Shown one piece after another: positions 1 through 62,420 of a stretch of DNA of 64,000 nucleotides. This DNA comes from a virus (Duplodnaviria; Caudoviricetes): positions 4,117-68,116 of IMG/VR virus record IMGVR_UViG_3300005937_000414. One strand, written 5' to 3'. The position numbers and the translations under genes were made by a program. Within the stretch, counting starts at the first letter, position 1. Every line of letters starts with the position of its first letter. Below the pieces are notes generated by a model that made no database searches, was not told the origin of the DNA, and was given only the letters and a program-made list of their open reading frames with translations.

Positions 1-2
1 AG

Positions 3-470
3 GAGCCGTGGCCGATGGGCATGGCCGGTGGATCGAATTTCACTTCGGGTTACCTCAAGCAGCAGGCCGAGATCTCCGGTGCGTTCCTGGCCGGGATGCT
101 CAGGTTCGGCTACACGAACGTCGTGCAGATGAACTCGACGCGCTGGCGGCAGATCGTTGCCGCCGACCTGGGCATCACGATCCACCACAGCAAGTGGCGT
201 GATCCGGTGTTGTGCAAGCAGTACAACTGCATCCCGCAGGACTCCGGAAAGTTCCGTTCCAAGCAGTGGGCGTTGGGCTATGCCCCGTTTTCAGAGAGAT
301 TTCATTTCAAAGTCCCCGATCTGCCCGACATCATCAAGAGCAAGCACGGCAACACACCCCGTCCCGACGGCTCGAAGGCCAAGGCGATCCAGCCTGCCGA
401 CGAGTACGACGCACTCGCGATCTGCTGGACGTTCTACAACGAGCTTCAGGAGTCGAAGCTGCTTTCTTGA
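3..470 (+). CDS. RuvC-like Holliday junction resolvase, 5'-truncated by the window edge
   Basis: Frame open from the window start (EPWPMGMAGG...); C-terminal DEYDALAIC resembles the RuvC DxxDA acidic motif; lies next to a helicase. Confidence 0.6.
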   Translation, partial: EPWPMGMAGGSNFTSGYLKQQAEISGAFLAGMLRFGYTNVVQMNSTRWRQIVAADLGITIHHSKWRDPVLCKQYNCIPQDSGKFRSKQWALGYAPFSERFHFKVPDLPDIIKSKHGNTPRPDGSKAKAIQPADEYDALAICWTFYNELQESKLLS

Positions 471-495
471 CCCAGGGACTATTTTCTGCTACAAC
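467..495 (+). promoter_or_regulatory. sigma-70/sigma-A type promoter
   Basis: TTGACC-N17-TACAAC, with TGC before the -10 as in the other promoters. Confidence 0.55.
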
Positions 496-505
496 AGGTG
501 GCGAG

Positions 506-946
506 ATGAGGTACGTCATTCACGTAGCCGAGGAAAAAGGCGGGCCGTTCGAGACGTACGGGCCGTACGAGGACTATCCGACCGCGCATGCGGCGGGCAT
601 GGTCTACGCCCGGCAGGGCAAGGACGTGTCGCTCTACCCGGCCGACGAGGCGGCGATCTGCGATTTCTGCTCTTCCCCGCTCGTCGCGTGGAGCTACGAC
701 GTGGAGGATTTCAGAGTCGGCTCGACCGAGTGGGGATCGCGCGGCGGCTGGGCTGCGTGCGACGACTGCCACGACCTGATCGAGAAGGGTGACCCCAGGG
801 CGCTGGCGCTGCACTCGCTGCGCACGTTTTTCACGACTAACTCGCAGATCCCAGACCAGCCGGAGGTGCGCTCCCATGTGTACGAGCACATTCGCACCGT
901 GCACGGTGAGTTCTGGGCGCACAAGCGCAGCGTGAGGCACATATGA
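506..946 (+). CDS. hypothetical protein, two CxxC pairs (probable Zn binding)
   Basis: MRYVIHVAEE...CDFC...CDDC; ATGA overlap with the helicase. Confidence 0.75.
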   Translation: MRYVIHVAEEKGGPFETYGPYEDYPTAHAAGMVYARQGKDVSLYPADEAAICDFCSSPLVAWSYDVEDFRVGSTEWGSRGGWAACDDCHDLIEKGDPRALALHSLRTFFTTNSQIPDQPEVRSHVYEHIRTVHGEFWAHKRSVRHI

Positions 947-2280
947 TCGTGGGCAGCCAACTGTCTGTCGGCTTCGATGAGCTATCCGAAGGCGAGTGGA
1001 AAAGGCTGCTCTCCAAGCTGTCGTTTTCACTCGATGGTGACGTGGTTCACTGCTACCGGCGGCTCTTGACAAAGGGCGTTTACAAGCTTCCGCGTGGAGC
1101 GTGGAGCCTGTTGCCCAATCACATCGTCTACCACGACAAGCGCTCGTGCCCACCAGCCCCCGAGTACGATTTCACGCTCAAGCTGGACGACACCGACAAA
1201 GACCCCCGCTTTTCGGGCCAGTCGGATGCCGTAACCGCCATGTTCGAGCACGAGCAAGGGCTGTTGATCCGCCCGCCCGGCACGGGTAAGACGCAGATTG
1301 CGCTGGCCTTCGCTGCCAAGGTGAAAACGAAGACGCTCGTGCTCGTGCATACGGACGATATCCTGCGCCAGTGGGTGAGCGCAGTCGAAGAGGTGATGCC
1401 CGACGCGCCGGTCGGAGTGATCAGACAGCGTCAGTTTTCAATTGGGCACGTCACCATCGCGATGGTGCAGACGCTGAACAAGCGCTACATGCACAAGTCG
1501 CGCTCCTGGTGGCAGCAGTGGGGCTGCGTGATTGCCGACGAGGCGCATCATGTCTCCGCTCCCACCTGGGAGGCCGTGATGAACAGGTGCTACGCCAAGT
1601 ACAGGTTCGGCTTCACGGCCAGCGAGACGCGGGCGGACGGCATGCATCCTACGATGAAATTCATCGTCGGCCCGGTCATCCACAAGATGAAATTCAGTTC
1701 GACCGTAAAGCTCACCGTCGAGCCGACGCAGACCGGCTTTCGCTATCTGTACCGGGGCCGCTGGGACTGGATGCCGCTGCTCGAAGCTCTGACCGCAGAC
1801 GAGGGGCGCAACCGCAAGATAGCGGAGGTGATCGACCGTGAGATCGCGGACGGAAATTCTGTCCTCGTGCTTAGCAGACGAATTGGCCACCTTGGAAACA
1901 TTGCTGGCTTTGTGCAAGCTGATGCTGAGATCCTCACTGGAAAACGTAGCCGAACTGATCGAAAGCGAATCCTTCGAGATTTCAGAGACGGACGGCTTAA
2001 GTGCCTTCTCGCTACGCAGCTTGCAGACGAAGCTCTCGACGTGCCAAGACTCAATCGAGTCGTGCTCACGTTCCCTGGCAAGCACGAGGGCCGGATTATC
2101 CAGCAGATCGGACGGGCGCTGAGAACGCATCCGTCCAAGAGCGATGCCAAGATCTACGACATGGTGGACGAGGTGGGCGTGCTGCGCCACCAGTACAGCC
2201 AGCGAGTGAAAACGTACAACACGAACAGGATCTCTGTCAACAGCCCGATCATGAGGAAGTTGAAATTGTGGCAGCGCTAA
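943..2280 (+). CDS. superfamily 2 (DEAH-box) DNA helicase
   Basis: PPGTGKT Walker A, DEAHH, TAS motif III, QQIGRALR motif VI. Confidence 0.93.
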   Translation: MIVGSQLSVGFDELSEGEWKRLLSKLSFSLDGDVVHCYRRLLTKGVYKLPRGAWSLLPNHIVYHDKRSCPPAPEYDFTLKLDDTDKDPRFSGQSDAVTAMFEHEQGLLIRPPGTGKTQIALAFAAKVKTKTLVLVHTDDILRQWVSAVEEVMPDAPVGVIRQRQFSIGHVTIAMVQTLNKRYMHKSRSWWQQWGCVIADEAHHVSAPTWEAVMNRCYAKYRFGFTASETRADGMHPTMKFIVGPVIHKMKFSSTVKLTVEPTQTGFRYLYRGRWDWMPLLEALTADEGRNRKIAEVIDREIADGNSVLVLSRRIGHLGNIAGFVQADAEILTGKRSRTDRKRILRDFRDGRLKCLLATQLADEALDVPRLNRVVLTFPGKHEGRIIQQIGRALRTHPSKSDAKIYDMVDEVGVLRHQYSQRVKTYNTNRISVNSPIMRKLKLWQR

Positions 2281-2753
2281 AGGATCTTCGTGGCCAGAAA
2301 TTCAGTCGGCTCCTTGTGCTTGAGATGGTGCCGAGAGAAATGTGGCGTGAAAGAAGAGCCGAGTGGCTGTGTGGATGCGACTGCGGAAATCTGATTCATG
2401 TGCGTGGTGACGCATTGCAGTGCGGCGGGACTACAAACTGCGGCTGTTGGCGCAATGTTCGCCATGAGCATACGAGAGGGAGAAAGGCTTCCTCAACCTA
2501 TAGAAGCTGGCGCATGATGATTCAACGATGTGAAAATCCTAGGGTCGAAAATTTTCGGAACTATGGTGGCCGTGGCATAACGGTTTGTAAACGGTGGCAT
2601 AGGTTCGAGAATTTCCTAGCTGACATGGGGGTACGCCCTGAAGGCATGTCAATTGATCGCATCGATAACGATGGTGACTATGAGCCTGGCAACTGTCGCT
2701 GGGCTACTCGTCAGGAACAAGCCCGAAAAGAGGAGACGAAACTGTGGCGATGA
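2268..2753 (+). CDS. HNH-type homing endonuclease
   Basis: GTG start with SD; WLCGCDCG, YGGRGITVCKRW, SIDRIDNDGDYEPGNCRWAT signature. Confidence 0.9.
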   Translation: MAALKDLRGQKFSRLLVLEMVPREMWRERRAEWLCGCDCGNLIHVRGDALQCGGTTNCGCWRNVRHEHTRGRKASSTYRSWRMMIQRCENPRVENFRNYGGRGITVCKRWHRFENFLADMGVRPEGMSIDRIDNDGDYEPGNCRWATRQEQARKEETKLWR

Positions 2754-2947
2754 AAAAGAAAGACGTGAAGGACGTGAAGAAGGCAGGCAAGAAGCGGGAC
2801 GAGATCGCGCTGGAGACGGCGCGTCAACTCCGGGCGCTGGGCGAGCGTGTCACCGTGCTCGAACGTCGCCTGGACGATCTCGTGATCCTCGGAGACGTGA
2901 AGGAGGAGAAGCCGAATGCCAGCCAAAGCCCGGACACCCAGGTCTAA
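2744..2947 (+). CDS. small hypothetical coiled-coil protein
   Basis: 67 aa, SD upstream, coupled to neighbours. Confidence 0.65.
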   Translation: MAMKKKDVKDVKKAGKKRDEIALETARQLRALGERVTVLERRLDDLVILGDVKEEKPNASQSPDTQV

Positions 2948-3431
2948 CGTCGTGAAAACGGAGGCCGACGCTAAGGCGGCCCTCCTGAAGTATCGCGCGA
3001 TCAAGGAAGACATCGCGGTGCGGATGGCAGCGGCCGGGATTCCTGACTTGGAAGAACAGGCCGACGAACTGAGGCAGAAGGCAACCGACTGGGCTGTGAA
3101 AAACGACAAGGACACGATCTCACTGGGCGGCAAGGTTTACGCGCGTCTGCGCCGGGACAAGTATGGCGGCACCTGGGTGGCGACGAGCGACGACCTAACG
3201 AGCGACACGCCGGTCAGCGTGGTTCCGCTACGCACGATCCTCTGGAACAAGTACGCGAAGAAGGGTGACAAGACGATGTTTAATGAAATCTGGCATCGTG
3301 TGTCTAGGCGGGCTGTCGATCCGGACAAGCTCGACCGTGCGGTTCAGGAAGGTGTGCTCACGGCCGACGAGATCTCTCCGGCGTTCTACGAGAAGGACAA
3401 GGCTCCTTTCCTGATCCTGTACGGAGACTGA
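2916..3431 (+). CDS. hypothetical protein (weak resemblance to Mu Gam-like end-binding proteins)
   Basis: Helical N-terminus followed by beta segment DTISLGGKVYARLRR; family call is low confidence. Confidence 0.6.
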   Translation: MPAKARTPRSNVVKTEADAKAALLKYRAIKEDIAVRMAAAGIPDLEEQADELRQKATDWAVKNDKDTISLGGKVYARLRRDKYGGTWVATSDDLTSDTPVSVVPLRTILWNKYAKKGDKTMFNEIWHRVSRRAVDPDKLDRAVQEGVLTADEISPAFYEKDKAPFLILYGD

Positions 3432-3433: not shown

Positions 3434-3775
3434 ATGCCGACGAAGAAGCATCGACCCAAGCTCAAGCCGTTGAAGAAGCGCAAGCCCGTCGAGCCGAACG
3501 TGCTGATCACCGGACGCAACAAGGTGCTTCCTCGTGAGATGAACTATTTCAAGCCCGTCCGCTACCGCAACCACCTGACGCTCGCAGAGATGGCTCGTGA
3601 AATTCCATGCGACCCATCCTGGCTCAGGAAGCTGGAGCGGGCGGGCCGCATCCCAATGGCTCAGCGCGTGCAGCGTGGAAAACTTTCGATTCGGCTCTGG
3701 TCGCCGGAGCAGCGCGACGAGATCAAGGAGATCATGGCCAGGCATCAGGTGGGAAGGCCGCCCAAGGAAAGATGA
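3434..3775 (+). CDS. HTH (MerR-like) DNA-binding protein
   Basis: TLAEMAREIPCDPSWLRKLERAGRIP...RLWSPEQ pattern. Confidence 0.7.
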   Translation: MPTKKHRPKLKPLKKRKPVEPNVLITGRNKVLPREMNYFKPVRYRNHLTLAEMAREIPCDPSWLRKLERAGRIPMAQRVQRGKLSIRLWSPEQRDEIKEIMARHQVGRPPKER

Positions 3776-5988: not shown

Positions 5989-6064
5989 GGCCGCCCTAGC
6001 TCAACGGGTAGAGCGTCTCCGGCAAGTGTGGGGAAGGTTCCTGGTTCGATCCCAGGGGGCGGCC
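5989..6064 (+). tRNA. tRNA-shaped RNA, His-like acceptor end, non-canonical 9-nt anticodon loop
   Basis: Acceptor GCCGCCC/GGGCGGC; D-arm GCTC-AACGGGTA-GAGC; T-arm CCTGG-TTCGATC-CCAGG; anticodon stem TCTCC/GGGGA with loop GGCAAGTGT; G-1 and C73; no encoded CCA. Confidence 0.7.
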
Positions 6065-6099
6065 CGGAGAGTTTTCAACCCGACAAGAAGCGAGGAGAG

Positions 6100-8743: not shown

Positions 8744-9184
8744 ATGCCGGTGAAAAAAAGAACCGCTCTTAGGCTCAGGTTCGAGCAGGGATTTCAGCGT
8801 GGCGCTCCTGACGAGTGTTGGCCGTGGCTCAAAGCTCGAACGCTCAAGGGCTATGGTCGGATCTATGCCGGACGGCAAAGACTCGCCCATCAAATTTCAT
8901 ATGAGTTGTACGTTGGCTCGATTCCGTTCGGCCTGGAGATCGATCACAAATGCGAAAACAAGTGGTGCGTGAATCCAGCCCATCTGGAAGTGAAAACTAA
9001 AGGCGACCATACGAAGCGTCATGGCCCGCATCGACCGCGTTCTAGCCACTGTAAACGAGGCCATGCGCTGACGCCTGAAAGCCGTATCGAGTGGAGTACG
9101 GGAACCATGTGCCGGATCTGTCACAATGCTGGGAAGCGTGCTCGACGGAAAGGAATTACAGTCGAGGAGGAGCTATGCCTGTAA
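8744..9184 (+). CDS. HNH homing endonuclease with C-terminal Zn module
   Basis: CWPW, IDHKCENKWCVNPAHL, then HCKRGH...CRIC. Confidence 0.9.
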   Translation: MPVKKRTALRLRFEQGFQRGAPDECWPWLKARTLKGYGRIYAGRQRLAHQISYELYVGSIPFGLEIDHKCENKWCVNPAHLEVKTKGDHTKRHGPHRPRSSHCKRGHALTPESRIEWSTGTMCRICHNAGKRARRKGITVEEELCL

Positions 9185-9419: not shown

Positions 9420-9806
9420 ATGAGCAATCACCTGTATCGCTTGTCGGACGACCCCGAGCAGCGGCGAATTGAAATTCGCGAGCGCTATAAAGAGACACGC
9501 GAGAACGTGCGCAAGAAGATCTGGCAGAACCAGGAGGCAATCCGGCTTCGTGCTGAAAACCTTATGAACCGCTGGATCATCAAAGGGGAGATCGACCCCG
9601 ACGAGGCGATGGCGGTCGCACGGGACAGCCGCAACCTTATCGAGGAGATCCAGCGCGAGGAGTACCCTGAAGAGTTTTTCAAGACGAGCGGGCGCAGGAA
9701 GTCTCTCACGCGCTGCCCGCACTGTGCCCGGCAGTACGCGTCGCGTACCGGGCTGGACGGCCACCTGCGCCGCATGCATCCCGAGCACGCTCCAAAGAAA
9801 TCTTGA
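9420..9806 (+). CDS. protein with C-terminal C2H2 zinc finger
   Basis: CPHCARQYASRTGLDGHLRRMH fits CxxC-x12-HxxxxH. Confidence 0.75.
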   Translation: MSNHLYRLSDDPEQRRIEIRERYKETRENVRKKIWQNQEAIRLRAENLMNRWIIKGEIDPDEAMAVARDSRNLIEEIQREEYPEEFFKTSGRRKSLTRCPHCARQYASRTGLDGHLRRMHPEHAPKKS

Positions 9807-11416: not shown

Positions 11417-11884
11417 ATGCCTCCCACGCGGACAAGAGAGTACATCGAGAGCCGGTTTCAGCGTCAGCCAAACGGGTGCTGGCGCTGGACTGGCGCTATT
11501 AGCAATTTCAGAAACGGTGTCCCACGCTACGGTCATCTTGTGTTTGAGGGAAAGCGTTTTCAAGCGCATCGGCTCATGTGGGAGTTTTACAACGGGTCGA
11601 TCCCGGATGGTCTGTTTGTCCTTCACTCGTGCGACGATACCCTTTGTGGAAACCCTGATCACCTGTTCCTGGGCACACACCAGGACAACATGGACGACAT
11701 GATGAAAAAGGGCCGGAGCGCAGACCAGCGGGGCGAGCGCAACGCTAACGCCAAGCTCACGCGCAAGCAGGTAGTTGAAATTCGGAAGGCCAGAGGATCG
11801 CAAGAAGCCATCGCGCGGCGATTCGGAATCACGCAGTCGATGGTAAGCAAGATCAAACTCCGACAAAACTGGAAGGACTACTGA
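11417..11884 (+). CDS. HNH homing endonuclease with C-terminal HTH
   Basis: CWRW, VLHSCDDTLCGNPDHL, GTHQDN, NAKLT. Confidence 0.9.
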   Translation: MPPTRTREYIESRFQRQPNGCWRWTGAISNFRNGVPRYGHLVFEGKRFQAHRLMWEFYNGSIPDGLFVLHSCDDTLCGNPDHLFLGTHQDNMDDMMKKGRSADQRGERNANAKLTRKQVVEIRKARGSQEAIARRFGITQSMVSKIKLRQNWKDY

Positions 11885-14645: not shown

Positions 14646-15095
14646 ATGAGAATCTCGCCTGCGGCGCGAGCCAGATTTGAGACGAAATTTCATCAGGGTC
14701 GGCACGATCAGTGCTGGCCCTGGTCTGGTTCTGTGAGTCGAAAAAGCCGGTACATGGTTTACGGCGTTTTTCACTACGCAGGCCAGAACCACCCGGCGCA
14801 CCGGATTGCATACAAGCTCTATGTTGGGTCGCCCGGTCGGATGTTGGTTCATCACACCTGTGAAAATCCTCTTTGTGTGAACCCGGCTCACCTGGCGTTG
14901 AAGACTCGACGCAAGCATGCGCTGTTGCACAACCCAAGGGATCGCAAGACGCATTGCCCGATTGGGCATAAGTTCACATCTGAAAACACGTTCCGGCGTG
15001 CGGACGGCAAGCGCGAGTGCCGAATCTGTCGCAACGAACGTGCCCGGCAGTACAGGTTGCATCAAAAGGAAAATGCTGCTACAGTACGTCCGTAA
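14646..15095 (+). CDS. HNH homing endonuclease with C-terminal Zn module
   Basis: CWPW, VHHTCENPLCVNPAHL, HCPIGH...CRIC. Confidence 0.9.
   Translation: MRISPAARARFETKFHQGRHDQCWPWSGSVSRKSRYMVYGVFHYAGQNHPAHRIAYKLYVGSPGRMLVHHTCENPLCVNPAHLALKTRRKHALLHNPRDRKTHCPIGHKFTSENTFRRADGKRECRICRNERARQYRLHQKENAATVRP
15057..15085 (+). promoter_or_regulatory. promoter embedded in the HNH 3' end
   Basis: TTGCAT-N17-TACAGT preceded by TGC. Confidence 0.55.
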
Positions 15096-16050: not shown

Positions 16051-16571
16051 GCGGGACGCCGTACCCCCCGGTTTCAGCGTCCTCGGGGCGGGAGCATGAA
16101 AGCGCAGAGCATGAGCAGCATGAAAAGGATCACGAACGTCTGGCCCGACACGAGCGCCGGATCCTAGCTCACCCCCCGCAAAGCGGGCATAGTGGCAGGT
16201 TTCGACGCTCGTGTCGCACGCCGCACGCCGGGCAAGCCCCGCACATGCCCGTGGAAGCCGCTGTAAGCCTCTCTAAGCCTCTTCGGCCGTTGACTCGACA
16301 CCTGACCTTCCTGTAGGGTCGAGGCCGTCAGAGGGCGTCCTAGAGCCTCTCGTGGGTAAGCCGCAGCCCCCTGGGAGGCTCTAGGAGCCTCTCTGGCGGC
16401 TTCACAGGGTTGTCCTCACCCCCTGGCATCCCCCGTCGCCACAGAAGCCGCTAGGGAGGCCCACAGCGGCTTTGAGAGTCATGCCTGACCGGCAGCCACA
16501 GGCGCAGGGCGAAAAAGTCTCCAAAATGAGCCGCAAGGGCCGTGTCAGAGCGATCCCCCCGGATCCGGGCC

Positions 16572-17010
16572 TGAAAACATTTCAAGCCCGGCCAAAGTGT
16601 TTTCACTTTGAGTTCGAGATCTGTTCCAGACTGGTTTTCACTTCGTTTTGGGGCTGGGTTTCCGGTTTCGTGAAAACCTGGCGTCCCTTAGTGGTTTTCA
16701 CCAGGGGGGTCGTTCTCACCCCAGAAAACAGACCGGCGTTTTGAAAACGAGGGTACGGGCCACCGCTCGCTACCTGTCGGCAGATCTCGCCGCAGCGACC
16801 GTAGCCAATGTTGAAAACAGACCCAGGCAGTTGTCGGCAATGAAAACAGGGCCAGACCTGGGATCGTTTTCCACGATGAAAACAAGCAGAGCCTACTCTA
16901 GTTATCCAAACTGGCAACAACGGGAACAAAAAAATCCCGCGAGGGATCTGAGGTCAGCTAGCCGGGAGTTTGTCGAGAATGAAAACGGCCGTTTCGGCGG
17001 CCGTGAAAAC
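16572..17010. repeat. array of 11 TGAAAAC/GTTTTCA heptamers in non-coding DNA
   Basis: Copies at about 16572, 16599r, 16634r, 16671, 16694r, 16742, 16812, 16841, 16877, 16980 and 17004. Confidence 0.85.
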
Positions 17011-17369: not shown

Positions 17370-18315
17370 TGAAAACGAGACTTGATTCAGGGGACTGCCC
17401 TAGGCTTTGTCGGGAGTTAGCTTCCCTTGATTTCGTCCAGTACCGCTTTCAGTTTCGCGGTCATTTCGTCCTCAGGGAAGCTACTAGGTGAGTAGGGACA
17501 ATCGAGATGAATCGTCCCCGTCTCACGTTCGTATTTCACGTTCCACGATCCCCCGTTTCTGCGACCCATGCCGCTCGTGATGGTCATGCCGACTTGATCG
17601 GCATGCATGCACATTGCGACGAACGTCAGACCGCGAAAGCTCGCGGGGGAAACCATTGGACTCCACGCGGTGAAATCCGATCTTTCGTTTTCTTTCTTGA
17701 CGCGAATCACGGTCGTTCGCGGCGACGAAGCCGCTTCCTGAACCATGCCGCTATCTGCCTTGTGCCGGATCGTAATCTGGCAGTCGATCCCGTGCAATTC
17801 AAGCGCAGTGACCGCCCGATTCAGCCAAGTGAAATACTGGCCCAGGATGCGGTGGCCCGTTGTGCAGACCATGCCGATTTCAGCGTCAATCGCCAGTCCA
17901 GGGATTGACTCGGTTTTCGTCCAGTCCAGCATGTATTCATCCTCGCCGTCAAGCGCGAGATCGAGCAGCATTTCATCGCCTTCCTCTGCGATGACCATCC
18001 GGGATTCCTCCCGGATCGGCGGCAGGAAAGTGTCGAAACCTTTCAGTTCCGAGGACTGGTATCCATGCTGTAGCCAGTCCTGCAGTTCACCCTTTGAGAA
18101 GCCTGCCCATTGGGCACGGCTGTAATCGGGGTTTACACACTTTTTCGCTTTCGTCGCATTGGCAGCCCGCTTGAATCCCTTGCGGGATCCCGCTTGCAAA
18201 CTGAGGACTCGTTCCCTCAGGTCTTCCCATTCAATCGTTACGCGGTTTTCATTCTTTTCCATGCTTGATCCTTTCGGTGCCCTTAGGCAATCCCCTGGAT
18301 CAAGCCTCGTTTTCA
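17370..18315. repeat. inverted repeat B enclosing the 281-aa gene
   Basis: 17370-17404 versus reverse complement of 18281-18315: 30/35 identical. Confidence 0.88.
17417..18262 (-). CDS. probable AAA+ ATPase partner (degenerate VWA/CobT-like)
   Basis: Start MEKNEN after GAAAGGA; EEGDEMLLDLALDGEDEYMLDW resembles CobT/VWA-partner segments; adjacent to a MoxR-type ATPase. Confidence 0.6.
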   Translation of the reverse strand: MEKNENRVTIEWEDLRERVLSLQAGSRKGFKRAANATKAKKCVNPDYSRAQWAGFSKGELQDWLQHGYQSSELKGFDTFLPPIREESRMVIAEEGDEMLLDLALDGEDEYMLDWTKTESIPGLAIDAEIGMVCTTGHRILGQYFTWLNRAVTALELHGIDCQITIRHKADSGMVQEAASSPRTTVIRVKKENERSDFTAWSPMVSPASFRGLTFVAMCMHADQVGMTITSGMGRRNGGSWNVKYERETGTIHLDCPYSPSSFPEDEMTAKLKAVLDEIKGS

Positions 18316-19888
18316 AAGTGCACAACACGTCGTTCCCGCTTTGTGAAATCCCCCCGATACCCTGAGGGAATTTCAAGTGTTGCCTAGGGTGAAACTAGCG
18401 CTTGACGTTCCGGTAGGCGAGCAACTCCTCAATCGCCGGATCGATATCGACCCAGATACGACCCATCCGGAAGCGGTCAAGCGTTGCGAAGTCGAGGGCT
18501 TTGCGACCCTTGAAAACGCGATTAGCGCCGCTTCCCCAGGTGTTGGCGGTTGCGGCCGCGATGTAATCCAAATGCTTGTCTACGGTCTTACCCGAAGTCG
18601 TATTGAACATTTGATCGGATTCCATCGCGTTGTTGATCAGGATCAGCATTGAAGCGTCGGCCGAGTCGATTTCATCGAAGTTGAAGAAACCGCCGTTACA
18701 GAAACGATCCTGATACTCGGACGAAACGTATCCACCACCTTCACCCTTCGTGATCGCAAGCAACTGATTCGCAAGCGTCATTTTCAGGTTCGGGTCATCG
18801 GGGAAAAGTTCGTCCAGGTCGCTCCGTCCGAGCAGCGCCGAAAGTGCAATTGCTTGATCGACTCCCGCAATCGTATTGCGTCCGAGCAAGTCGCCACGAG
18901 TAGCACCGGATGACATTGCCGCTTCCCCGTAGGGAAGATCCATGAAATCAGCCAGTTGCTTGACCAAGTGGGACTTACCGGTACCCGCAGGCCCGCAGAG
19001 ATAAATCGGCTGACGGCACTGCGCATACACAAACGCTAGCCCGAACATTTCATGCAATTTCTCCGTCCTACCCGTGTCCTTACGGACAATCGTAGTGGGC
19101 AGATCGAGAGTTTTTGCAATGTCACGGGACACTTGCTTGAAATCGACCTGAGGGATGTTGAAATCCCGCTTTGCACCGTCGGGCCAATCGATGGTCATCG
19201 TGGCCAAACAGGTATCGGCCGAAAGACCGCCAACAGGGATCAGGTTCCCGGCCGCGTTGAACGGGCGGATACTGATTTTGTCGATGTAGCGGTCATCCTT
19301 TTCACGCCGGTCACACTCCACGCGGATTTCACGAGCACGGGCAACGAACTTGTCGAGTTCGCTGACCGCGCGCACTTTCGATCCAGCCTGGGGCTTCGGC
19401 GTTTCCCTTTCGTCCTCAGGTTCGGGTTGAACCTCGATTTCCGGCACGCCCCGTCCGCCATCGAAAACGAAGGGTTCGGGGGGTGTGACAATCGGCGTTT
19501 CCGGAACGGGCGACGGGGAGATTTCCCCGCGTTGCATCGCGTTGTAAATCCGCGAGACATGCTGTTCCAGCATGACCAGTTGCTCCCAAATGGGCTTCCG
19601 CTCGCGCTTCGGCCCACCCGGTACCGGATTCTCCACGTTCGCACTGAAAACCATCGGGGGAGTCTGCGACTCCACGAGCGGCCGCAAAGCAGTGACCGCT
19701 TCCCTTTCGGTTTTTCTAGCGAGGTAGAGATCCCGGATCATTCCGACCTGAGTCGTTGATCCCGCGAGCATGATGCGATTGCGATTCATGTAGTTAGTCC
19801 TTTCGTGACTGAGTGATCCTACGTTTGTCGGATACCTCAGGGGCACGAAGGGATTTCACAAAGCGGGAAACAACGGGATGTGCACTTT
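18315..19888. repeat. inverted repeat C enclosing the AAA+ ATPase gene
   Basis: Exact blocks AAAGTGCACA, TTCCCGCTTTGTGAAATCCC and CCCTGAGG (18315-18367) versus reverse complement of 19835-19888. Confidence 0.9.
18395..19789 (-). CDS. MoxR/CbbQ-type (AAA_5) AAA+ ATPase with long N-terminal extension
   Basis: GPAGTGKS Walker A, FNFDEID Walker B, AATANTWG, LDFATLDRF; start MNRNRI after GAAAGGA. Confidence 0.88.
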   Translation of the reverse strand: MNRNRIMLAGSTTQVGMIRDLYLARKTEREAVTALRPLVESQTPPMVFSANVENPVPGGPKRERKPIWEQLVMLEQHVSRIYNAMQRGEISPSPVPETPIVTPPEPFVFDGGRGVPEIEVQPEPEDERETPKPQAGSKVRAVSELDKFVARAREIRVECDRREKDDRYIDKISIRPFNAAGNLIPVGGLSADTCLATMTIDWPDGAKRDFNIPQVDFKQVSRDIAKTLDLPTTIVRKDTGRTEKLHEMFGLAFVYAQCRQPIYLCGPAGTGKSHLVKQLADFMDLPYGEAAMSSGATRGDLLGRNTIAGVDQAIALSALLGRSDLDELFPDDPNLKMTLANQLLAITKGEGGGYVSSEYQDRFCNGGFFNFDEIDSADASMLILINNAMESDQMFNTTSGKTVDKHLDYIAAATANTWGSGANRVFKGRKALDFATLDRFRMGRIWVDIDPAIEELLAYRNVKR

Positions 19889-20760
19889 TGAGTTTTCAAG
19901 GTTCGGCGCTGGCATGGGGCTAACTGCGCCCGGCCGACCTGGCGGGAGAATCAACCGCGTTACTAGGTTGCATCGCAATTTCAGTGCCCAAACGATCTGG
20001 TGACCATCGATGCGGGGATTTCGAACCGGAGTTTGAAGCCGTCGGGGAATCCCCCGTTCGCGAACGGGTTTCTCAACCGCCAAGTTTTCAATGATCATGG
20101 TGGGGAATCGCTTCCCCGTGGCCCGCTTCAACGGCCGGGCCAGACCACAGAATACCAGTCCTCCTCTCCCCGCGCGAGGGTGCAGGAAAGCGAATCGACC
20201 GTAGGTCAAAACCGCTCAGAAACCCTCGTTTTCATTCATTGTTGCCTGCCCGGACGAACGGGTGTAATTCCCTCTCACGGCCCCACTAAAACCGCCTACG
20301 GTCTTCCAGTCCGGATACGGTCGTTTCCCCGCTGAAAACATTCATTCGAGTCCTCTATTTTCAAAGCCGATCCAAGCGGGCCGAGTATTGAAGTAGGGTG
20401 GGAGAGTAGGGGTGGGTTTGGGAAGTTGGGTGAAAACCTCCAAATCCCTCCAAATCCCCCTGGGCTCACGATGAAATTCCCCCCTGGATACCTCTGTGTA
20501 CCCTCTGGGTTTTCATTTCAGGCCGAATGCGTTTTCAACGCCGGTAACTAACCGACCCCAGGTCTGTTTCAGGGTGTCTATCCTCTAGGTTTTCATTCTG
20601 GATAACCCTCTGCAGATCTCGGGGATTTTCCGATGAAAATCGAGGTTGTAAGTGCTGGCTTACGAAACGTCCGTTCGATTGCAAGAACAGGCTTCGGATC
20701 CGAGATTTCAGTTTCTCTAAAAACGAGAAAACCGCATGGTTGAGCCAAATCCGGGTGATA

Positions 20761-20895
20761 TCACTCTCATTGAGAGTGAAAATGAAAACATGCGATTTGC
20801 AGGGACTTTGTGACCTCGTGAAGTGAACACGTGAAAATGAAAACGAGACGTACCCTGGGGGGCTTTTTGAAACACTGGATTTTGAAACACTGGAT
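20761..20895. repeat. palindrome and short repeats in the divergent non-coding region
   Basis: TCACTCTC-ATT-GAGAGTGA (20761-20779); GTGAAAATGAAAAC twice (20776, 20831); tandem TTTGAAACACTGGAT twice (20866-20895). Confidence 0.75.
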
Positions 20896-21012
20896 TTGGG
20901 TATTAGACCCAGAGTCTGGGCCAACCTGGATCTAGAAAACCACTCTGGGAAAAATTTTACCCTTTTTGGCTTGTTCTGAACACTTCTCGACCGCCTGCTA
21001 CAATCGGCTGCC

Positions 21013-21804: not shown

Positions 21805-22002
21805 ATGCCACGCAGAGCGTACTCCAAAGGATCGAGGAAGGCTCTGGCCGCAATGAAAAAGAGATACGGTGCCAAGAAGGGCACCAGTGTGTTCTACGCC
21901 AAGGCGAATCGCTACGGCAAGCGGGGAATTTCAAGAGCCAGGAAGGCCAACTCCGTCTACAGCAAAGGCTCTCACAGAGTCAAGCGCAGGAAGCGCAGAT
22001 GA
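21805..22002 (+). CDS. small very basic protein (MKKRYGAKKG...VFYA motif)
   Basis: 65 aa, no acidic residues; TAGACC-N17-TACAAT promoter and AAGGAG SD upstream. Confidence 0.75.
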   Translation: MPRRAYSKGSRKALAAMKKRYGAKKGTSVFYAKANRYGKRGISRARKANSVYSKGSHRVKRRKRR

Positions 22003-23601: not shown

Positions 23602-23636
23602 GAGGGCCGGGTGAAAACTCGGCCCTCGTTTTCGTT
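23602..23636 (+). terminator. intrinsic terminator
   Basis: GAGGGCCGGG-TGAAAA-CTCGGCCCTC then GTTTTCGTTT. Confidence 0.65.
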
Positions 23637-23652
23637 TAGACTCGCTCGCAGC

Positions 23653-25350: not shown

Positions 25351-25352
25351 AA

Positions 25353-34946: not shown

Positions 34947-34968
34947 AGGCGAAGGGAGGGTAATTTCA

Positions 34969-40557: not shown

Positions 40558-40570
40558 AAGGTGGTGAAGA

Positions 40571-41719
40571 ATGTCTAGCACTTTGCTCGACCCCCGTGTA
40601 ATCGACGCCAGCACACTGACACCGAGGCAGACGAGCGAGATTTTCCTTCAGCCCGCTGTCGAAGGGCAGGCGGATACGGCCGGGACGGCGAACATCAATG
40701 TGCCCATACTGATTTCACGTCTCGACCAGGCGGCCGACCAGTTCGGGGCGAACTCACCGCTGTACCGCAACATCAAGGCGCTGCTCGACCGTGGCGCAGG
40801 CCCGGTGATCGGTATCGCGTCCGTCAAGGGTGCGACTCCTCCGACGCTCGCGCAACGACAGGCGGCCTGGGAGAAGCTGGAATCGGACACGAACATCCGC
40901 ATCCGGCTGACCGACTCCGAGGTGCAGGCCGACCTCACTGCACTTTCAGTTTCGTGTGCGAACGCGAGCCTGATCGACAACAAGCAGATCGCCTTCGTCG
41001 GCATGCCGTCCGGCACGACGAAGGCGAACCTGATCGCCGCAGCGACGGCGATCACGGCAGGCGGTGAAATTCCCGCATCGCGGACGTGCCTCGTCGCTCC
41101 CGGCGTCTACGACCAGACGGGAACGCTCAGGGGCGGTTCGTTCGGAGCCGCATGCGTGGCCGCCGAGGTGGCCAAGAACGGGGATCCGTCCAACGATCTC
41201 GACCTGTGGGACATTCCTTTGCTCACGGCAATCGAGCTGGACGCGTTCGGCCTTCCGATTTTCAGAAGGAAGGTTGTGTCCGGCGTGCCCATGAACGACT
41301 ACGAGGATCTGCTGCAGGGTGGTATCACACCGCTTCAGCCGTCTCGCATCGCCGGAGGCGTGGCCACGACGCATCTGCGCACGGCGTACACGACGAACAC
41401 CGCGTACGACTCACTGTACACGCGCATCATCGTGGATCAGCTTTTTGTGGACGTGCGCGACTATCTGTATGGCGGTGGCTTTTTCAGACAAGGGAACACC
41501 GAGACGACTCGCAACTGGATCAAGTCGGGCGTGATGGCACTGCTGGACGAGCGCCGCACCTGGCTGGCTCCGGTCGAGCAGCCGGACGGTACGCGTGGCT
41601 ATAAGGTCAACGTTGTCGCCTCGGCGGATTTCCGCCAGGTGATCGTCGGCTACGAGGGGATCGTCGTTCGCGGAATTTCAACGATCAAGGTTGCAGGGAA
41701 CCTCACAATCCCGGTCTAG
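40571..41719 (+). CDS. contractile tail sheath protein (compact)
   Basis: 382 aa; C-terminal RIIVDQL...GNTETTR...I sheath pattern. Confidence 0.8.
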   Translation: MSSTLLDPRVIDASTLTPRQTSEIFLQPAVEGQADTAGTANINVPILISRLDQAADQFGANSPLYRNIKALLDRGAGPVIGIASVKGATPPTLAQRQAAWEKLESDTNIRIRLTDSEVQADLTALSVSCANASLIDNKQIAFVGMPSGTTKANLIAAATAITAGGEIPASRTCLVAPGVYDQTGTLRGGSFGAACVAAEVAKNGDPSNDLDLWDIPLLTAIELDAFGLPIFRRKVVSGVPMNDYEDLLQGGITPLQPSRIAGGVATTHLRTAYTTNTAYDSLYTRIIVDQLFVDVRDYLYGGGFFRQGNTETTRNWIKSGVMALLDERRTWLAPVEQPDGTRGYKVNVVASADFRQVIVGYEGIVVRGISTIKVAGNLTIPV

Positions 41720-41737
41720 CGAAAGGAGGTATGAAAA

Positions 41738-42157
41738 GTGGGTTGGTTGGCTGGCATAACAGCGGTAGACCTGGACATCAAGTTCGAGGCCGGTACGCAT
41801 TTCACGGCCGTGCAGGAGATGACCGAGGAGTTCCGCCAGGAAGTCGCGTATCAGGGCGCATTCAGGCACGACGGCCCCGTGCTGCGGCGCAAGCGCAGAT
41901 CGGACGAAGGCACGATCAGCTTTTCGGTCATACTGCTGAAGAGCGGAATTTCAGGGGAGATGAACAACGAGGACAAGCTCAAGGACATGGAGGACTTCGA
42001 GATCACGACGATCCGGGGCAACCATACGTGGACGTACAAGGGCTGCAACTGGAATCGAATTTCAATTCGTTCCACGCTCGACCAGTGCACGCTCGATGCC
42101 GACGTGTCCGTGCCCGGCTATCCCGCGCCGTATCCGGCGGGAGTCGGTCTGGGCTAG
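41738..42157 (+). CDS. tail tube protein
   Basis: 139 aa after the sheath; FEITTI...TYKGCNW. Confidence 0.7.
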   Translation: MGWLAGITAVDLDIKFEAGTHFTAVQEMTEEFRQEVAYQGAFRHDGPVLRRKRRSDEGTISFSVILLKSGISGEMNNEDKLKDMEDFEITTIRGNHTWTYKGCNWNRISIRSTLDQCTLDADVSVPGYPAPYPAGVGLG

Positions 42158-58342: not shown

Positions 58343-58636
58343 GTGATACATTTCCTATTTTGTGCGGATTGTCACGAGCGGGTTCCACTCTCCGGTGGGG
58401 TTTTCACTGGACGTCGAATGTTCGGTCGAACGAGCGCGAGCCGTCAGGCGAGCGCTCAGCCTACGGGAAGTTGCAAGGCGGGTTTTCTGGTTTTAGCCCG
58501 AAGCGCCTTCGCGAAAGCTCACCCCCCTTTAAAGGGGGGTGGTTTCCGGAAAGCTAGGGCGGAGGGGGTGTGGGGGAACCCATTTTCAACTCTGAATCGA
58601 CCCAGGGTTAAGGCGGCGGTTGAAAATGTCTGTTGA
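58343..58636 (+). CDS. possible 97-aa protein
   Basis: GTG after AAAGGAAGG, CADC motif; region is palindrome-rich and may be non-coding. Confidence 0.35.
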   Translation: MIHFLFCADCHERVPLSGGVFTGRRMFGRTSASRQASAQPTGSCKAGFLVLARSAFAKAHPPLKGGGFRKARAEGVWGNPFSTLNRPRVKAAVENVC

Positions 58637-59984
58637 ATCGCTCGTGATCGCTGCGCTTTCGAGCGAAGGCAGCCTCAAGAAGGCGTTCATGGCCGGGATC
58701 GATGTGGATGCATTCGAGATCTGCGACGACGAGTTCGCCTGGATGGTTCGGCGCACGGAATCGAAGATGCCGATCACGCCGATCTTCTTCAAACGGAAAT
58801 TCCCGGAGTTCGACTTCGTGGTTTCGGAGGAGTCCACGACCGATCTGATCGAGGAACTGAAAAAAGAGCGGGCATACGTCGCGATTTCCTCTGCCATAGA
58901 GGAGATGCTAGGAGGGGATGAGCCTCTCGATGCCGATAACGCGCTCTACAAGTTCGACAGCTTCAGGGAAGTCCTTGAGGAGGTACGCAGTCAGGTAGCC
59001 AGGGTCGATTCGCTGGTGATGGTCAAGGCTGGCTGGCAAGCGCACTATCAGAAAATGAAAAACCTCGCCTCCTTGCGCCAGAACGGGGAGATTCCTGGAA
59101 TCCCTACAGGACTTGCACACCTGGACTTGCACTGGGGAGGACTTCAGGGCGAGACAACATACCTGTACCTGGGCAGGCCAGGAGATGCCAAGTCGTTTTC
59201 ACTCGCCCAACTCGTGGTTGAGGCTGCGTGGAACGGCTACCGTGCAGTCGTGTTCTCGCCGGAGATGAGCGAGCACCAACACTTCGCAAGATTTCACACC
59301 CTCCTCTCTGCCAAGAAGGAGGTGCAGGAAGCATGTGGACTCAACGAGGCATTCCCAAATCGGCTCTTGCGCGAAGGTCGCGGTTTCAACTTGAAAACGT
59401 ATCGCCGCTTCTGCCAGTGGCTGGAGTCAGAGCTTCGAGGCGAGATGGTGCTCTTCACTCAGAAGTACCGGCGGGAACAGATGTCCGTTAGCTACATTCG
59501 CTCGCATCTCAGGGAGGTCGAGGCGGATCTCGTCGTGGTCGATCCGCTTTACAAGCTGCGTCCTCCACGTCGTCGTGGTACGCGTTGGGAGGAACTTGGC
59601 GAGATCACCGACGCGCTGATGAATTTGGCGCACGAGTACAACATACCCGTCGTAATTTCAAATCAGGCGAACCGAGCGTTGATCGGCAAGGACGACGCGC
59701 CGAGTATGAATTCATCCTTCGGATCCGATGCTCCTGTGCAGGAAGCGGATACTGTGATCGGTGTCAGGCATATGGACTCCGATCGGAAGCTCAAGTTTTC
59801 ATGCACAAAAAATCGTTACGGAGAACGCTTCAAGTTCGAGGCACGCTTCTTGCCCAACTTCGGGGTCGTTCAGGACATCACGCCGCTGAAGGATGTCTAT
59901 GCTCGTGGATTCGATACCGATCAGCTTGAAAAGCTGGAGGCTCAACTCGAAGAAGAGGAAGCGGAGCACGATACGTACAAATGA
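58626..59984 (+). CDS. DnaB-like replicative helicase
   Basis: GRPGDAKS Walker A variant, FSPEM, VVVDPLY, QANR, QEAD, KNRYG. Confidence 0.9.
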   Translation: MSVESLVIAALSSEGSLKKAFMAGIDVDAFEICDDEFAWMVRRTESKMPITPIFFKRKFPEFDFVVSEESTTDLIEELKKERAYVAISSAIEEMLGGDEPLDADNALYKFDSFREVLEEVRSQVARVDSLVMVKAGWQAHYQKMKNLASLRQNGEIPGIPTGLAHLDLHWGGLQGETTYLYLGRPGDAKSFSLAQLVVEAAWNGYRAVVFSPEMSEHQHFARFHTLLSAKKEVQEACGLNEAFPNRLLREGRGFNLKTYRRFCQWLESELRGEMVLFTQKYRREQMSVSYIRSHLREVEADLVVVDPLYKLRPPRRRGTRWEELGEITDALMNLAHEYNIPVVISNQANRALIGKDDAPSMNSSFGSDAPVQEADTVIGVRHMDSDRKLKFSCTKNRYGERFKFEARFLPNFGVVQDITPLKDVYARGFDTDQLEKLEAQLEEEEAEHDTYK

Positions 59985-60268
59985 AAACCAGTGCCAAGAG
60001 GAGGTACATAATGGGCACAGGAGAGATCGTGGATTTTTCAAAGCCAGCGAAGAACCCGCCCGTCGAAGGCACGCAGCAGCCGCAGGAGATCCAGCGTCTG
60101 TCCGGCTCGCAGGGAGTGCCGCACGGTGTCGAGGTGCGCGTGCACGAGACGGTCACGGTCGAGAACGACAAGCTGCGCAGCATGGTACGCAGGCCGGGGG
60201 ATCCTGAAATCCGGGTCAGGGACGGTAATCCCAAAGAGTGGGAGGAGACGAAGCGGAACGATGATTAA
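59981..60268 (+). CDS. hypothetical protein
   Basis: 95 aa (alternative ATG at 60011 after GAGGAGG). Confidence 0.6.
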   Translation: MKTSAKRRYIMGTGEIVDFSKPAKNPPVEGTQQPQEIQRLSGSQGVPHGVEVRVHETVTVENDKLRSMVRRPGDPEIRVRDGNPKEWEETKRNDD

Positions 60269-60674
60269 TTTCATCTGCGGTTGCACGTCCAAGATGGATC
60301 TCCCGACCGACGAGAGCAGCTTCAAGACGTTCGATTCGGTCGTGCTCGACCAGGAGGGCTTCGTCATCTGCCAGGTTCACCGCGAGCGCAGGTACGGCTG
60401 GCGTTCCGTGCCCTATACGGCGCAAGCCCCTCAGCAGGCTCTCACAGCCGGTATGACGGCCTTGGAACACGAAAGGTGGCTCGTGTGGGGGGAAGTGCCT
60501 CGAACGCGTCCCTGGCCCTCTCAGAGCCGCACAGAGGATCGTAGGGACAACAGAGATCCACAAGAGATCGGTGCTGAAATTCTTCGGAAGAACATCTGGA
60601 ACGAGACGAGCCTGGGGCCGCCACCTTCAAGTGCGGCCCAGAACGGAGGACAGCTTGAAATTCCGGGGACGTGA
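60261..60674 (+). CDS. hypothetical protein
   Basis: 137 aa, CGC...CQVH. Confidence 0.65.
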   Translation: MINFICGCTSKMDLPTDESSFKTFDSVVLDQEGFVICQVHRERRYGWRSVPYTAQAPQQALTAGMTALEHERWLVWGEVPRTRPWPSQSRTEDRRDNRDPQEIGAEILRKNIWNETSLGPPPSSAAQNGGQLEIPGT

Positions 60675-61683
60675 CATAGATCCGGTCGCGCTCTGGTCGG
60701 AGTACGTCGAGTTTCCGAGTAACACGAAGGAGGACGGTTCCGAGTTCTCGCCGCTCGTGTTCTGCCCCAATCCACAGCACGACAATTTCAGATCTCCGGC
60801 CTTCCAGGTCAACCTGCGGCTGCCGCTCGTTCATTGCTTCAGCCGCTGCGGTATCGGCGGCACGTACGAGCACGCCGTGGCCATGATTCACGGTCTGTAT
60901 GAAAAGCATCAGGTCAGCGAGGCGACGAACGAGCGTGAGAGGACGATTCGCCGCCGCAAGGCAGAGCGTGAGGCGAGAAAGATCATCCTGCGCGGGGCCA
61001 AGACGAGTGTTTTTACGAGAGTGCACGACGAGAAGCGCCCTGTCGCCAAGACGAAGTATGCTCGCAAGCTGGAGTACGAGCGCTTCATGCCCGAAGCCGG
61101 ACTTCGGTATTTGAAATCGCGTGGGGTCAGTGGCCGGGAGATCTCGCTGTGGGAGTTGGGCTGGGATCCTGAAAACCAGCGGATCGTGATTCCGGGCAAC
61201 GACGAGAACGGCCGCCTGCGCTTTTTGATCAAGCGGGCCGTCAAGGAGAGCCAACAGCCCAAGTACCTGTACACGGAAGGCTTCGAGAAGACGAGCGTAC
61301 TGTTCGGGGCCGACACGGTTCTGAAAAACCCGGCTGGGATTATCCTGGTCGAGGGCAGTTTGGATGTGATCAAGCTCTCCAAGTACGGACTGCCCGCCGT
61401 GGGCATCCTCGGTACCGGAATTTCAGATCGCCAGCGCAGCATCATCTCGAACTTGCGGCCCAAGTCGATTTTTCTCATGTTCGACAAGGACGCTGCGGGC
61501 GTGCGCAACATCGAGATCGCGTACGAGATGCTCAAGCACTACCCTTTGCACGTATGCCGGTACCCGAAAGGAAAATCGGATCCGGCCGAACTGAGCGAGA
61601 AAGAGGCCGAGCACTCGATTCGAGGAGCGATTCCGATTCTGATTTGGCGTAAACGGCTCAGAGAGCGGCAAACTCGGCCTTGA
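60655..61683 (+). CDS. DnaG-like primase (Zn finger plus TOPRIM)
   Basis: CPNPQH...HCFSRC; YLKSRG; KYLY; ILVEGSLDV; FDKDAAG. Confidence 0.9.
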   Translation: MKFRGRDIDPVALWSEYVEFPSNTKEDGSEFSPLVFCPNPQHDNFRSPAFQVNLRLPLVHCFSRCGIGGTYEHAVAMIHGLYEKHQVSEATNERERTIRRRKAEREARKIILRGAKTSVFTRVHDEKRPVAKTKYARKLEYERFMPEAGLRYLKSRGVSGREISLWELGWDPENQRIVIPGNDENGRLRFLIKRAVKESQQPKYLYTEGFEKTSVLFGADTVLKNPAGIILVEGSLDVIKLSKYGLPAVGILGTGISDRQRSIISNLRPKSIFLMFDKDAAGVRNIEIAYEMLKHYPLHVCRYPKGKSDPAELSEKEAEHSIRGAIPILIWRKRLRERQTRP

Positions 61684-61759
61684 TTATTCGTCCCAGGGAT
61701 GGTAGCTTAACCAGACAAGCCTGAATGCCAGGCACCCGACGAAGGAGAACATCACCGAG

Positions 61760-62420
61760 ATGGCACTGAAAAGGACTTCCAGAGACAAGCGGATGCGCGT
61801 TCGCACCGTGCGCACTCGCGAGGAGCGCAAGCGCCCCAGCGTTTTCATGCGCTTGAAAGCGGACGAGAGCTTCCGGGGCGTCGCTCTGTTCGAGCCGGAT
61901 CCCGAAGCGGCCGAGAAGGGTGAAAACCCCGGCTACTTCGAGTATTACGATCACTACGACAAGGCCGGGAACACGTACGTCCCGTGCAGCGGCGAGGACT
62001 GCCCGTTCTGTGCGGCGAACGACAACCCGTCCACCCGCGCCCTGACCGCCTGGTACTTCCCCGAGGCTCCGGACGCGAAGGATCAGATCAAGCTTTTCAC
62101 GATGAACTACAGCACCATCGAGGACATCACGGACGAAGCCGAGGAAGAGGACGGGATTCTCGGCAAGAAGATCCGCATCAAGCGGCTCGATGACCGGGGG
62201 AATTACAAGATCAAGGTACTCCCCGACAAGCCGCTCACGGCCAAGCAGCAGAAGGATCTGCTCAAGCGCCTGGAGGAAGAGGTGCTCAAGGGCGACGGCA
62301 TGGAGGGACTCGTCGTCGCGCAACTGAAAAGGCAGATCGAGCGGCTCAAGGCTCTCGACTTGCTCGAAGAGGAAGAAGAGGAAGACGAGGACGGCGACGA
62401 GGACGAGGAGGAGATCCAGA
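61760..62420 (+). CDS. ssDNA-binding protein (gp32-like), C-terminus interrupted at the junction
   Basis: H...C...CPFC Zn site, aromatic OB-like core, long acidic tail; sequence character changes abruptly after ...GAGATCCAGA. Confidence 0.65.

Follow-up and report, generated by a model that had tools for sequence, protein, structure and literature searches.

The nearest described system to the one reported here is the stoperator network of the Cluster A mycobacteriophages, in which 13-bp repressor sites, about 24-36 per genome, are dispersed through the genome and oriented with transcription (PMC9283540, PMC6550527). BldC, which is monomeric, recognises AATTXXXX(C) with its wing inserted into the narrowed, AT-rich minor groove, and the DNA is bent by about 50 degrees (PMC5859096); Gp36 of phage D29 is a MerR-like protein that binds repeats (PMC12266134). 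Both are found at a small number of promoters, bound to adjoining 9-bp repeats as head-to-tail multimers (PMC5859096, PMC12266134). The 5-kb genome of the parvovirus MVM (minute virus of mice), a eukaryotic single-stranded DNA virus, carries 14 octamer sites (ACCA repeats) for NS1, a nickase-helicase (PMC7592911). Here we describe a six-letter word, TGAAAW (W is A or T), that recurs on both strands of a phage genome contained in a stretch of 64,000 bases (the window), which is bases 4117-68116 of one virus record of 68,116 bases (IMG/VR IMGVR_UViG_3300005937_000414). Some host words, namely Chi, the FtsK-orienting polar sequences (KOPS), the DNA uptake sequences (DUS) and the uptake signal sequences (USS), are likewise short, non-palindromic and far above chance, at one per 1-5 kb; Chi and KOPS are polar, and the spacing of USS is more even than random. 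Our literature searches found no described equivalent of a lattice such as the one presented below, and to our knowledge the few dozen stoperators are the only dispersed recognition words so far described in phages.

Positions 1-62,420 of the window contain 412 copies of TGAAAW (139 TGAAAA, 111 TTTTCA, 65 TGAAAT and 97 ATTTCA), or one per about 151 bp, where base composition predicts about 24; the word occupies about 4% of the genome. Dinucleotide shuffles (n=100) gave 44.85 +/- 5.57 sites, and simulated Markov chains of order 1, 2 and 3 gave 48, 62 and 135 (z 58, 46 and 25). Within the 67 coding sequences (CDS), 286 sites were observed against 56.6 +/- 6.5 after shuffling of synonymous codons (z 35) and 26.9 after shuffling of codon order (z 56). 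The over-representation of TGAAA(A/T), first put forward in a prediction made from the letters alone, therefore held under every null tried, including the codon-shuffled and Markov nulls, and the counts on which it was based were reproduced exactly: 18 sites in positions 1-3000 (8 plus, 10 minus) and 14 in 39,950-42,070. The consensus reads TGAAA followed by W (A 55%, T 36%) and Y. Positions upstream and further downstream carry no information, and so the word has no dyad symmetry. Its initial T is specific, since TGAAA occurs 481 times and each of AGAAA, CGAAA and GGAAA only 92-126 times. One-letter neighbours of the word are at expected levels and no precursor is depleted, which makes a single mutational route unlikely.

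The word is found on both strands and in all frames free of an in-frame TGA stop, and 389 of the 457 TGAAA sites lie inside called genes. Plus-strand genes contain 125 sense and 141 antisense copies, which is about equal and shows no tie to the direction of transcription. The rare codon pairs that had been said to build the word (TTT TCA, ATT TCA, GTG AAA and TTG AAA) were confirmed by codon choice. After NTG, lysine is encoded by AAA in 69 of 85 cases (81%), compared with 86 of 533 (16%) elsewhere; glutamic acid preceded by T and followed by AW is encoded by GAA in 55 of 63 cases, compared with 18 of 130 when AW follows alone; and serine after NTT is encoded by TCA in 41 of 79 cases, compared with 45 of 789 elsewhere. 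The word is selected at the DNA level. A reading in which it supplies off-frame ('ambush') stops was rejected, as TGAC, TGAG and TGAT are not enriched. TGA is also the preferred stop codon (42 of 67 genes), and 14 of these 42 stops double as the first three letters of TGAAAW (e.g. at 3429, 3773, 7535, 11882, 12142, 22233 and 25348). Selection for the word may shape stop-codon choice and gene junctions.

The sites are spaced more evenly than chance. With two dense arrays and one inserted block excluded, the coefficient of variation (CV) of the gaps is 0.64 (gamma shape about 2.4), compared with about 1.05 for control pentamers of like abundance; gaps shorter than 25 bp number 7 against 57 expected, and gaps longer than 400 bp 7 against 27 expected. 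Random placement would put 86% of bases within 150 bp of a word, where the observed share is 93%, and word counts per gene are under-dispersed (chi-square 54.7, 85 degrees of freedom). Around each site there is an exclusion zone of about 40-60 bp, equal for like- and unlike-oriented sites, with a pair correlation of 0.07-0.44 below 40 bp; the genome-wide pair correlation g(d) below 20 bp is 0.07-0.4. When the sites of one strand were slid against those of the other, 55.4 +/- 6.3 cross-strand pairs closer than 40 bp were expected and 13 were observed; in C84, a relative described below, the corresponding values were 93.2 +/- 7.1 and 27. The gap CVs of same-strand sites equal those of random orientation labels placed on the combined lattice. 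Because the exclusion ignores orientation and the same-strand CVs match this relabelling null, the spacing rule belongs to the duplex and to neither single strand.

Plus and minus sites are equally frequent (215 and 220) with no switch along the genome, and orientations follow one another at random (226 of 434 neighbours co-oriented). These results, together with the cross-strand exclusion, bear out the earlier claim that the word lacks strand polarity and is hence not used like Chi or KOPS. Fourier analysis found no helical (about 10.5 bp) or other strict period; of the suggested periodicity, what remains is an evenness beyond chance. Sites arranged for head-to-tail multimers on adjacent 9-10 bp repeats do not occur genome-wide, and tandem pairs are found in array 2 only, at a 6-bp offset.

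Two non-coding regions are dense in the word (arrays 1 and 2, Table 1), and they lie 6.6 and 2.7 kb, respectively, from the terminase genes. In the related loci L006 and L011 arrays stand at the same distance as array 1 (-6 to -7 kb relative to the gene of the large terminase) and are made of the relatives' own word. A search of IMG/VR for three TGAAAAC within 45 bp returned AT-rich contigs only, at a 2-4-fold excess. The two arrays of the window flank a minus-strand cassette (17,417-19,846) that encodes a CobS/MoxR-like AAA_5 ATPase (phrog_249) and a DUF7192 protein, a pair found again in L006, L011, L020, L167 and L201.

One block of the genome is poor in the word. Its genes, the only ones of this kind in the window, contain 2 and 1 copies where 10.4 and 4.8 are expected, and the longest gap between words (26,373-27,951) falls within it. 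Because the block is almost without the word and its genes are common to only 6-10 relatives, it is probably a recent acquisition that has not yet gained the word of the clade. Homing endonuclease genes, of which the record has at least six of HNH type (five in the window) and at least one of LAGLIDADG type, all bear the word at normal density, and for this reason they appear to circulate within the clade.

Relatives of the phage were collected from IMG/VR with the large terminase (TerL) as the marker, 26 loci by terminase search and 66 in total by profile search. A search of genome contigs with TerL as the single query gave no match. Nearly every relative whose TerL is at least 47% identical (about 60 metagenomic loci) has a word of the same kind, strongly over-represented; the word is weak in three short or divergent loci (L170, L179 and L181), and three relatives whose TerL is 35% identical have no word. 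The word-bearing relatives come from many different metagenomes and range from 36 to 63% GC. Most of them use TGAAAT/GAAATT(C). TGAAAA plus TGAAAT is found in the window's phage and its closest relatives, TGAAAA alone in L198, TGACAA plus TGAAAA in L196, L200 and L205, TGGAAT in L182 and L184, and TGTAAT in L162, L181, L188 and L189. Across lineages the TG of the word does not vary, and the relatives favour AnTn tracts (GAAATTC, GAAATTTC) and avoid TpA. Direct terminal repeats are present in two relatives, and five relatives, 64-74 kb long, are 90-100% complete, so that the relatives look like free phage genomes and not prophages. When the window's phage is set against relatives about 77% identical in nucleotide sequence, the conserved share is about 50% for its sites and 25-30% for random hexamers; the remaining sites have turned over with the density maintained.

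C84, a complete-looking relative of 70.8 kb (TerL 47% identical) in an Acidobacteria metagenome-assembled genome (MAG), contains 369 TGACAA and 224 TGAAAA sites, where about 20 and 13 are expected. The combined sites are more regular still, and the two words repel each other: the CV of the combined sites is 0.65, against 0.77 and 0.88 for the two words separately, with a mode of 60-100 bp and 18 gaps shorter than 25 bp against 112 expected. Because they are more regular jointly than either is alone, TGACAA and TGAAAA are interchangeable and form one functional class. Eight bacterial contigs from this MAG (G001), the rpoB contig among them, have both words near expectation, binning being no proof of host. 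The word is thus present in the relatives and not enriched in contigs of a host that is putative.

An asymmetric word with orientation-blind spacing points to a monomeric reader of double-stranded DNA (dsDNA). Helix-turn-helix (HTH), basic and histone-like proteins had all been proposed as readers in the original prediction. No HU/IHF-type or ParB protein was found in the window by the regular-expression and Pfam searches run, nor an HU/IHF-type protein by the motif scan, and the basic proteins are not clade-wide. Two HTH proteins are clade-wide, namely the small terminase subunit (TerS) and a 113-aa MerR/Xis/BldC-like winged-helix (wHTH) protein, which is the best candidate. In the wHTH protein the N-terminal tail is very basic and a C-terminal GRP is invariant; the matches of the protein to Pfam HTH_31 (below the gathering score) and to the excisionase/regulator family phrog_66 are weak. 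It is present in all five complete relatives, in C84 and in two partial records; the partial records in which it was not matched (G007-G009) are themselves 20-66% complete and uninformative. In the AlphaFold2 (AF2) model (predicted local distance difference test score, pLDDT, 77) the top PDB matches are all MerR-type wHTH proteins, with CadR at Z 8.0 (root-mean-square deviation 1.4, 57 aa), RacA at Z 7.3 and excisionases at Z 5.5-6.7. The MerR dimerisation coiled coil is lacking, and the protein is therefore predicted to be a minimal MerR-like protein of the BldC/Xis kind.

Two other proteins were dropped as universal readers, a C2H2 zinc-finger protein (9420-9806), found in none of the five complete relatives, and a very basic, highly conserved protein of 65 aa, found in two of the five. 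Where it occurs, the latter is 84-86% identical between phages whose terminases are just 65-70% identical, and it is absent from the other three; a search of the ESM Atlas returned viral hypotheticals only. Two small basic proteins upstream of the terminase genes, this one and that of 22,327-22,596, have a common C-terminal NSVY-x-K/H-G motif.

Taken together, the sharp specificity, the lineage-specific drift, the orientation-blind exclusion, the arrays and the conservation of sites fit best a reading in which TGAAAW is a lineage-specific dispersed binding word for a phage dsDNA-binding protein. We put this reading forward tentatively, as one that may be right; that the 113-aa wHTH protein specifically is the reader is possible but doubtful. 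A phage-encoded, sequence-specific protein would bind single asymmetric sites in either orientation, with one bound site every 150 bp or so of the genome, and a monomeric reader would fit the lack of dyad symmetry. Coding cost and diminishing returns would hold the sites at least 40-60 bp apart within genes, and the two non-coding arrays would be high-occupancy sites. The clade-wide wHTH protein would be the most likely reader. By analogy with BldC, its wing or GRP tail might lie in the narrow minor groove of AAAW with the recognition helix on the TG side, and the word would drift between lineages (TGAAAA, TGAAAT(T), TGACAA, TGGAAT, TGTAAT) as the specificity of the reader drifts. The array of bound sites may serve to organise or bend the DNA, to mark it for packaging or to protect it. 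The original notion of a selected binding lattice or self-mark thus survives in its selection at the DNA level, in the even, orientation-blind array and in the retention of the word in about 60 relatives, and loses its basic and histone-like candidates.

Several points weigh against the favoured reading. The fold match is middling (Z no higher than 8.0, Foldseek E-value 0.03), MerR/Xis-like proteins are common in phages without such a word, and the differences in the recognition helices of the wHTH protein and TerS track phylogeny and single out no reader. The TGACAA of distant relatives has no pure A/T tract, which weakens a minor-groove reading. Dense arrays are lacking in C84, which does have the word. 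Inside the two non-coding arrays of the window the exclusion zone does not hold, and it is therefore not a hard steric footprint. Finally, lost sites were not replaced within 30-50 bp in the relatives, in a test that was underpowered and in which the relatives' words partly differ.

It is conceivable, though we think it unlikely, that the lattice amounts to a 'phage chromatin', with a monomeric wHTH protein every 120-150 bp on a private, co-evolving word that would act as a self-mark for packaging or for protection from nucleases or defence.

TerS, which is matched in 65 loci, offers a rather unlikely alternative reader. The word would then be the recognition element of TerS, the arrays would be a pac- or cos-like start, the isolated words would retain the terminase or mark packageable DNA, and the exclusion zone would prevent pseudo-pac clusters within genes. 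P1 pac is built of clustered TGATCA/G hexamers, in two groups that are bound by the pacase, confined to pac and accompanied by Dam sites, and arrays with flipped orientation stand again at a fixed distance from the terminase genes in L006 and L011. The recognition helix of TerS differs between word groups: it is ISRGQV with TGAAAT/GAAATT, ISSDQV in the window's phage, NIQGSLV with TGACAA and GERKSTI with TGGAAT. This link is confounded with phylogeny, however, and it has exceptions (L186/L187 and L195 have SRGQV yet ample TGAAAA). The lack of an array in C84 and the 2.7 and 6.6 kb that separate the arrays from the terminase genes also count against TerS, and we know of no terminase that uses hundreds of dispersed sites.

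The phage also encodes a DnaB-like helicase and a DnaG-like primase, and relatives encode DnaE. We consider it improbable that the word is the start signal of this primase, with the template WTTTCA giving a pppGAAAW primer and a cryptic 3' A, kept frequent because an AT-rich site is otherwise rare in a GC-rich genome. An invariant TG is what would be expected of cryptic and initiating nucleotides, and T7 primase sites are pentamers of the same logic. A primase, however, reads one strand, so that the two strands should be independent, whereas opposite-strand sites exclude each other equally strongly and the sites of a single strand are no more regular than the combined lattice makes them. Okazaki priming would need far fewer sites than one per about 300 bp on each strand, and no polarity switch occurs along the genome.

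A reading without any protein reader is improbable as well. In it the word would act through its intrinsic structure, a flexible TG/CA step beside a stiff A-tract, easing the bending or condensation of DNA in the capsid; the even, orientation-blind spacing, the lack of dyad symmetry and the relatives' preference for AnTn tracts over TpA are all consistent with it. Yet the specificity is too sharp for this, as the counts of TGAAA and of A/C/GGAAA indicate, the word is lineage-specific and absent from relatives at 35% TerL identity, TGACAA has no A-tract and there is no phasing at about 10.5 bp.

The chance is slim that the word is a target of DNA modification or another anti-defence mark, for which more sites would mean more protection. 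Type I, Type III and BREX systems have targets that are likewise short and asymmetric, and the word is a dense, self-specific mark absent from the contigs of the putative host, but an exclusion zone is not predicted for such a target. No N6/N4, D12-class or C5 methyltransferase (PF01555, PF02086 and PF00145) was found in five complete relatives in searches that included positive controls, nor was any methyltransferase among the window proteins searched. Hardly credible is a functionless by-product of context-specific mutation or mismatch-repair bias, in the manner of the very short patch (VSP) repair that skews pentamer counts in E. coli: such a drive would give strand symmetry and presence in all frames, but it would have to convert several one-step neighbours, none of them depleted, to the same word, and it gives neither regular spacing nor cross-strand exclusion and explains neither dense non-coding arrays kept in relatives nor sites conserved at twice the background rate.

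The word had also been thought to stop at the phage boundary. Its count in 62,421-64,000 is indeed zero, but since only about 0.09 sites are expected in these last 1,580 bases at 74.6% GC, the zero is uninformative. The GC content steps from 59% to 75-80% at about 62,415, inside the acidic tail of a gene for a protein like the single-stranded DNA-binding protein (SSB), so that the boundary runs through this gene and probably marks a chimeric join. The analysis covered assembled contigs from two rhizosphere runs. For the probable source run, which is a rhizosphere metagenome, there is an independent assembly; its phage contig, at depth 9.9, extends as far as 62,414 and then continues into different sequence. 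The high-GC pieces have a depth of 3.6-4.7, and the join is not spanned by any record with 31 letters on each side. The other end of the record (L041:1-510, outside the window) is 67-74% GC and encodes a truncated response-regulator receiver domain. On the divergence, the depths and the lack of a bridging record at the right-hand join, the joins are most likely chimeric, at a GAG/GAC-rich low-complexity stretch, and the record is probably chimeric at its two ends. Both ends of the record consist of bacterial-type regulator gene fragments of 67-80% GC, fused to phage DNA inside genes. Between the SSB gene and the left-end genes C84 encodes a DnaE-type Pol III alpha subunit (1122 aa), a RecA-like protein and a PD-(D/E)XK nuclease (L038:10000-19400), and this replication/recombination block of about 8 kb is missing from the present record.

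Judged by its predicted genes (Table 1), the window's phage is myovirus-like. About 90 proteins were searched for families, and many of them match none; no integrase or repressor family was found among them. Megablast of 24 kb of the window against GenBank phages gave no match, and PDB sequence searches with four conserved proteins of unassigned family gave none either. The TerS gene lies 3' of the TerL gene and overlaps its stop codon, an unusual order, and the overlapping letters, GTGAAAA, are themselves a copy of the word. Two translationally linked mini-ORFs (30,489-30,878), placed between the portal and head genes, have products that are 41-43% Lys+Arg with no acidic residue; the 85-aa product is present in nine relatives, and these proteins may be packaged DNA-condensing proteins. 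ARAGORN called a tRNA-Leu (anticodon AAG) at 5990-6065.

Table 1. Positions in the window of the genes and non-coding regions discussed.
Feature	Position	Strand	Remarks
Candidate reader, 113-aa MerR/Xis/BldC-like wHTH protein	3434-3775	+	
HNH_3/LAGLIDADG genes	8744-9184, 11417-11884, 14646-15095, 31637-32089, 36086-36805; L041:3391-3822		
Non-coding array 1	16570-17010		12 words, mostly TGAAAAC; orientation flip near 16,720; between converging transcription units
Non-coding array 2	20300-20900		divergent control region; about 15 words including tandem TGAAAATGAAAAC pairs; 20-bp repeat units
Very basic 65-aa protein	21805-22002	+	
Large terminase (TerL), GpA type	23611-25350	+	
Small terminase subunit (TerS) with HTH	25347-25979	+	phrog_2538 and HTH_7 matches
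Word-poor genes (collagen-repeat/CBM_5_12 protein and neighbour)	25999-28277	+	63-66% GC; between TerS and portal
Probable portal gene	28894-30492		assigned by position and conservation; no family match
Capsid protein	34903-36159		
Baseplate J and Mu gp48-like proteins			
DEAD-box helicase			
DnaB-like helicase	58620-59984	+	reader in the priming hypothesis
DnaG-like primase	60571-61683	+	Toprim/DNAG_N and phrog_47 matches; reader in the priming hypothesis
SSB-like gene	61760-62415	+	compositional junction cuts acidic tail
Foreign tail	62416-64000		74.6% GC; foreign to the phage and probably mis-joined; minus-strand fragment of a TPR regulator gene

In every gene the word overrides codon choice; it obeys a spacing rule and is inherited with drift across a clade of uncultured soil phages. 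Such a constraint implies a central function that concerns the chromosome as a whole. Identification of the reader would give access to a new side of phage DNA biology, be it the marking, the organisation or the protection of the genome. Private words of this kind could also be used as a signature for binning phage contigs, for detecting chimeric joins (as at both contig ends here) and for spotting recently acquired genes.

The word resembles Chi, KOPS, DUS and USS in being short, non-palindromic and held far above chance by selection. Unlike them, it is specific to a phage clade and absent from the contigs of the putative host, is 10-30 times denser and ignores orientation. Neither the polarity and strand-specific reading that define Chi and KOPS nor the host enrichment that defines DUS and USS, for a host that is putative, was found here. 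The arrays recall P1 pac in being made of TGA-initial hexamers in non-coding DNA, and the orientation flip of array 1 recalls it too, but here the same word also fills the whole genome. In MVM the recognition word of a viral DNA-binding protein is repeated along the genome beyond the origin and tags viral DNA; the word described here is likewise repeated along a viral genome, with a reader that is a candidate only. The closest likeness to BldC and Gp36 is the candidate reader's predicted minimal MerR-type fold without a dimerisation coiled coil. BldC sites (AATTCGGTC, GATTTCCCC, GAATTTCGC) resemble the words of the clade, and the A/T tract with a flanking base-specific contact that marks such sites has its counterpart in TG followed by AAAW or AATT, with TGACAA as the exception. 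A BldC-like logic, with a base-specific TG side and an AAAW/AATT tract, would thus be an attractive match by analogy only; unlike the sites of BldC and Gp36, those described here are single and at least 40-60 bp apart across a whole genome. With the stoperators the word shares its asymmetry without a dyad, its dispersal through coding DNA and its variation between related phages. Stoperators are read by a monomeric phage protein, and we infer a reader of that kind here, although no repressor or integrase was found among the proteins searched. In contrast to stoperators, the word is 6-7 bp long, has about 435 copies, which is about 15 times more, and combines a random-looking orientation with regular spacing.

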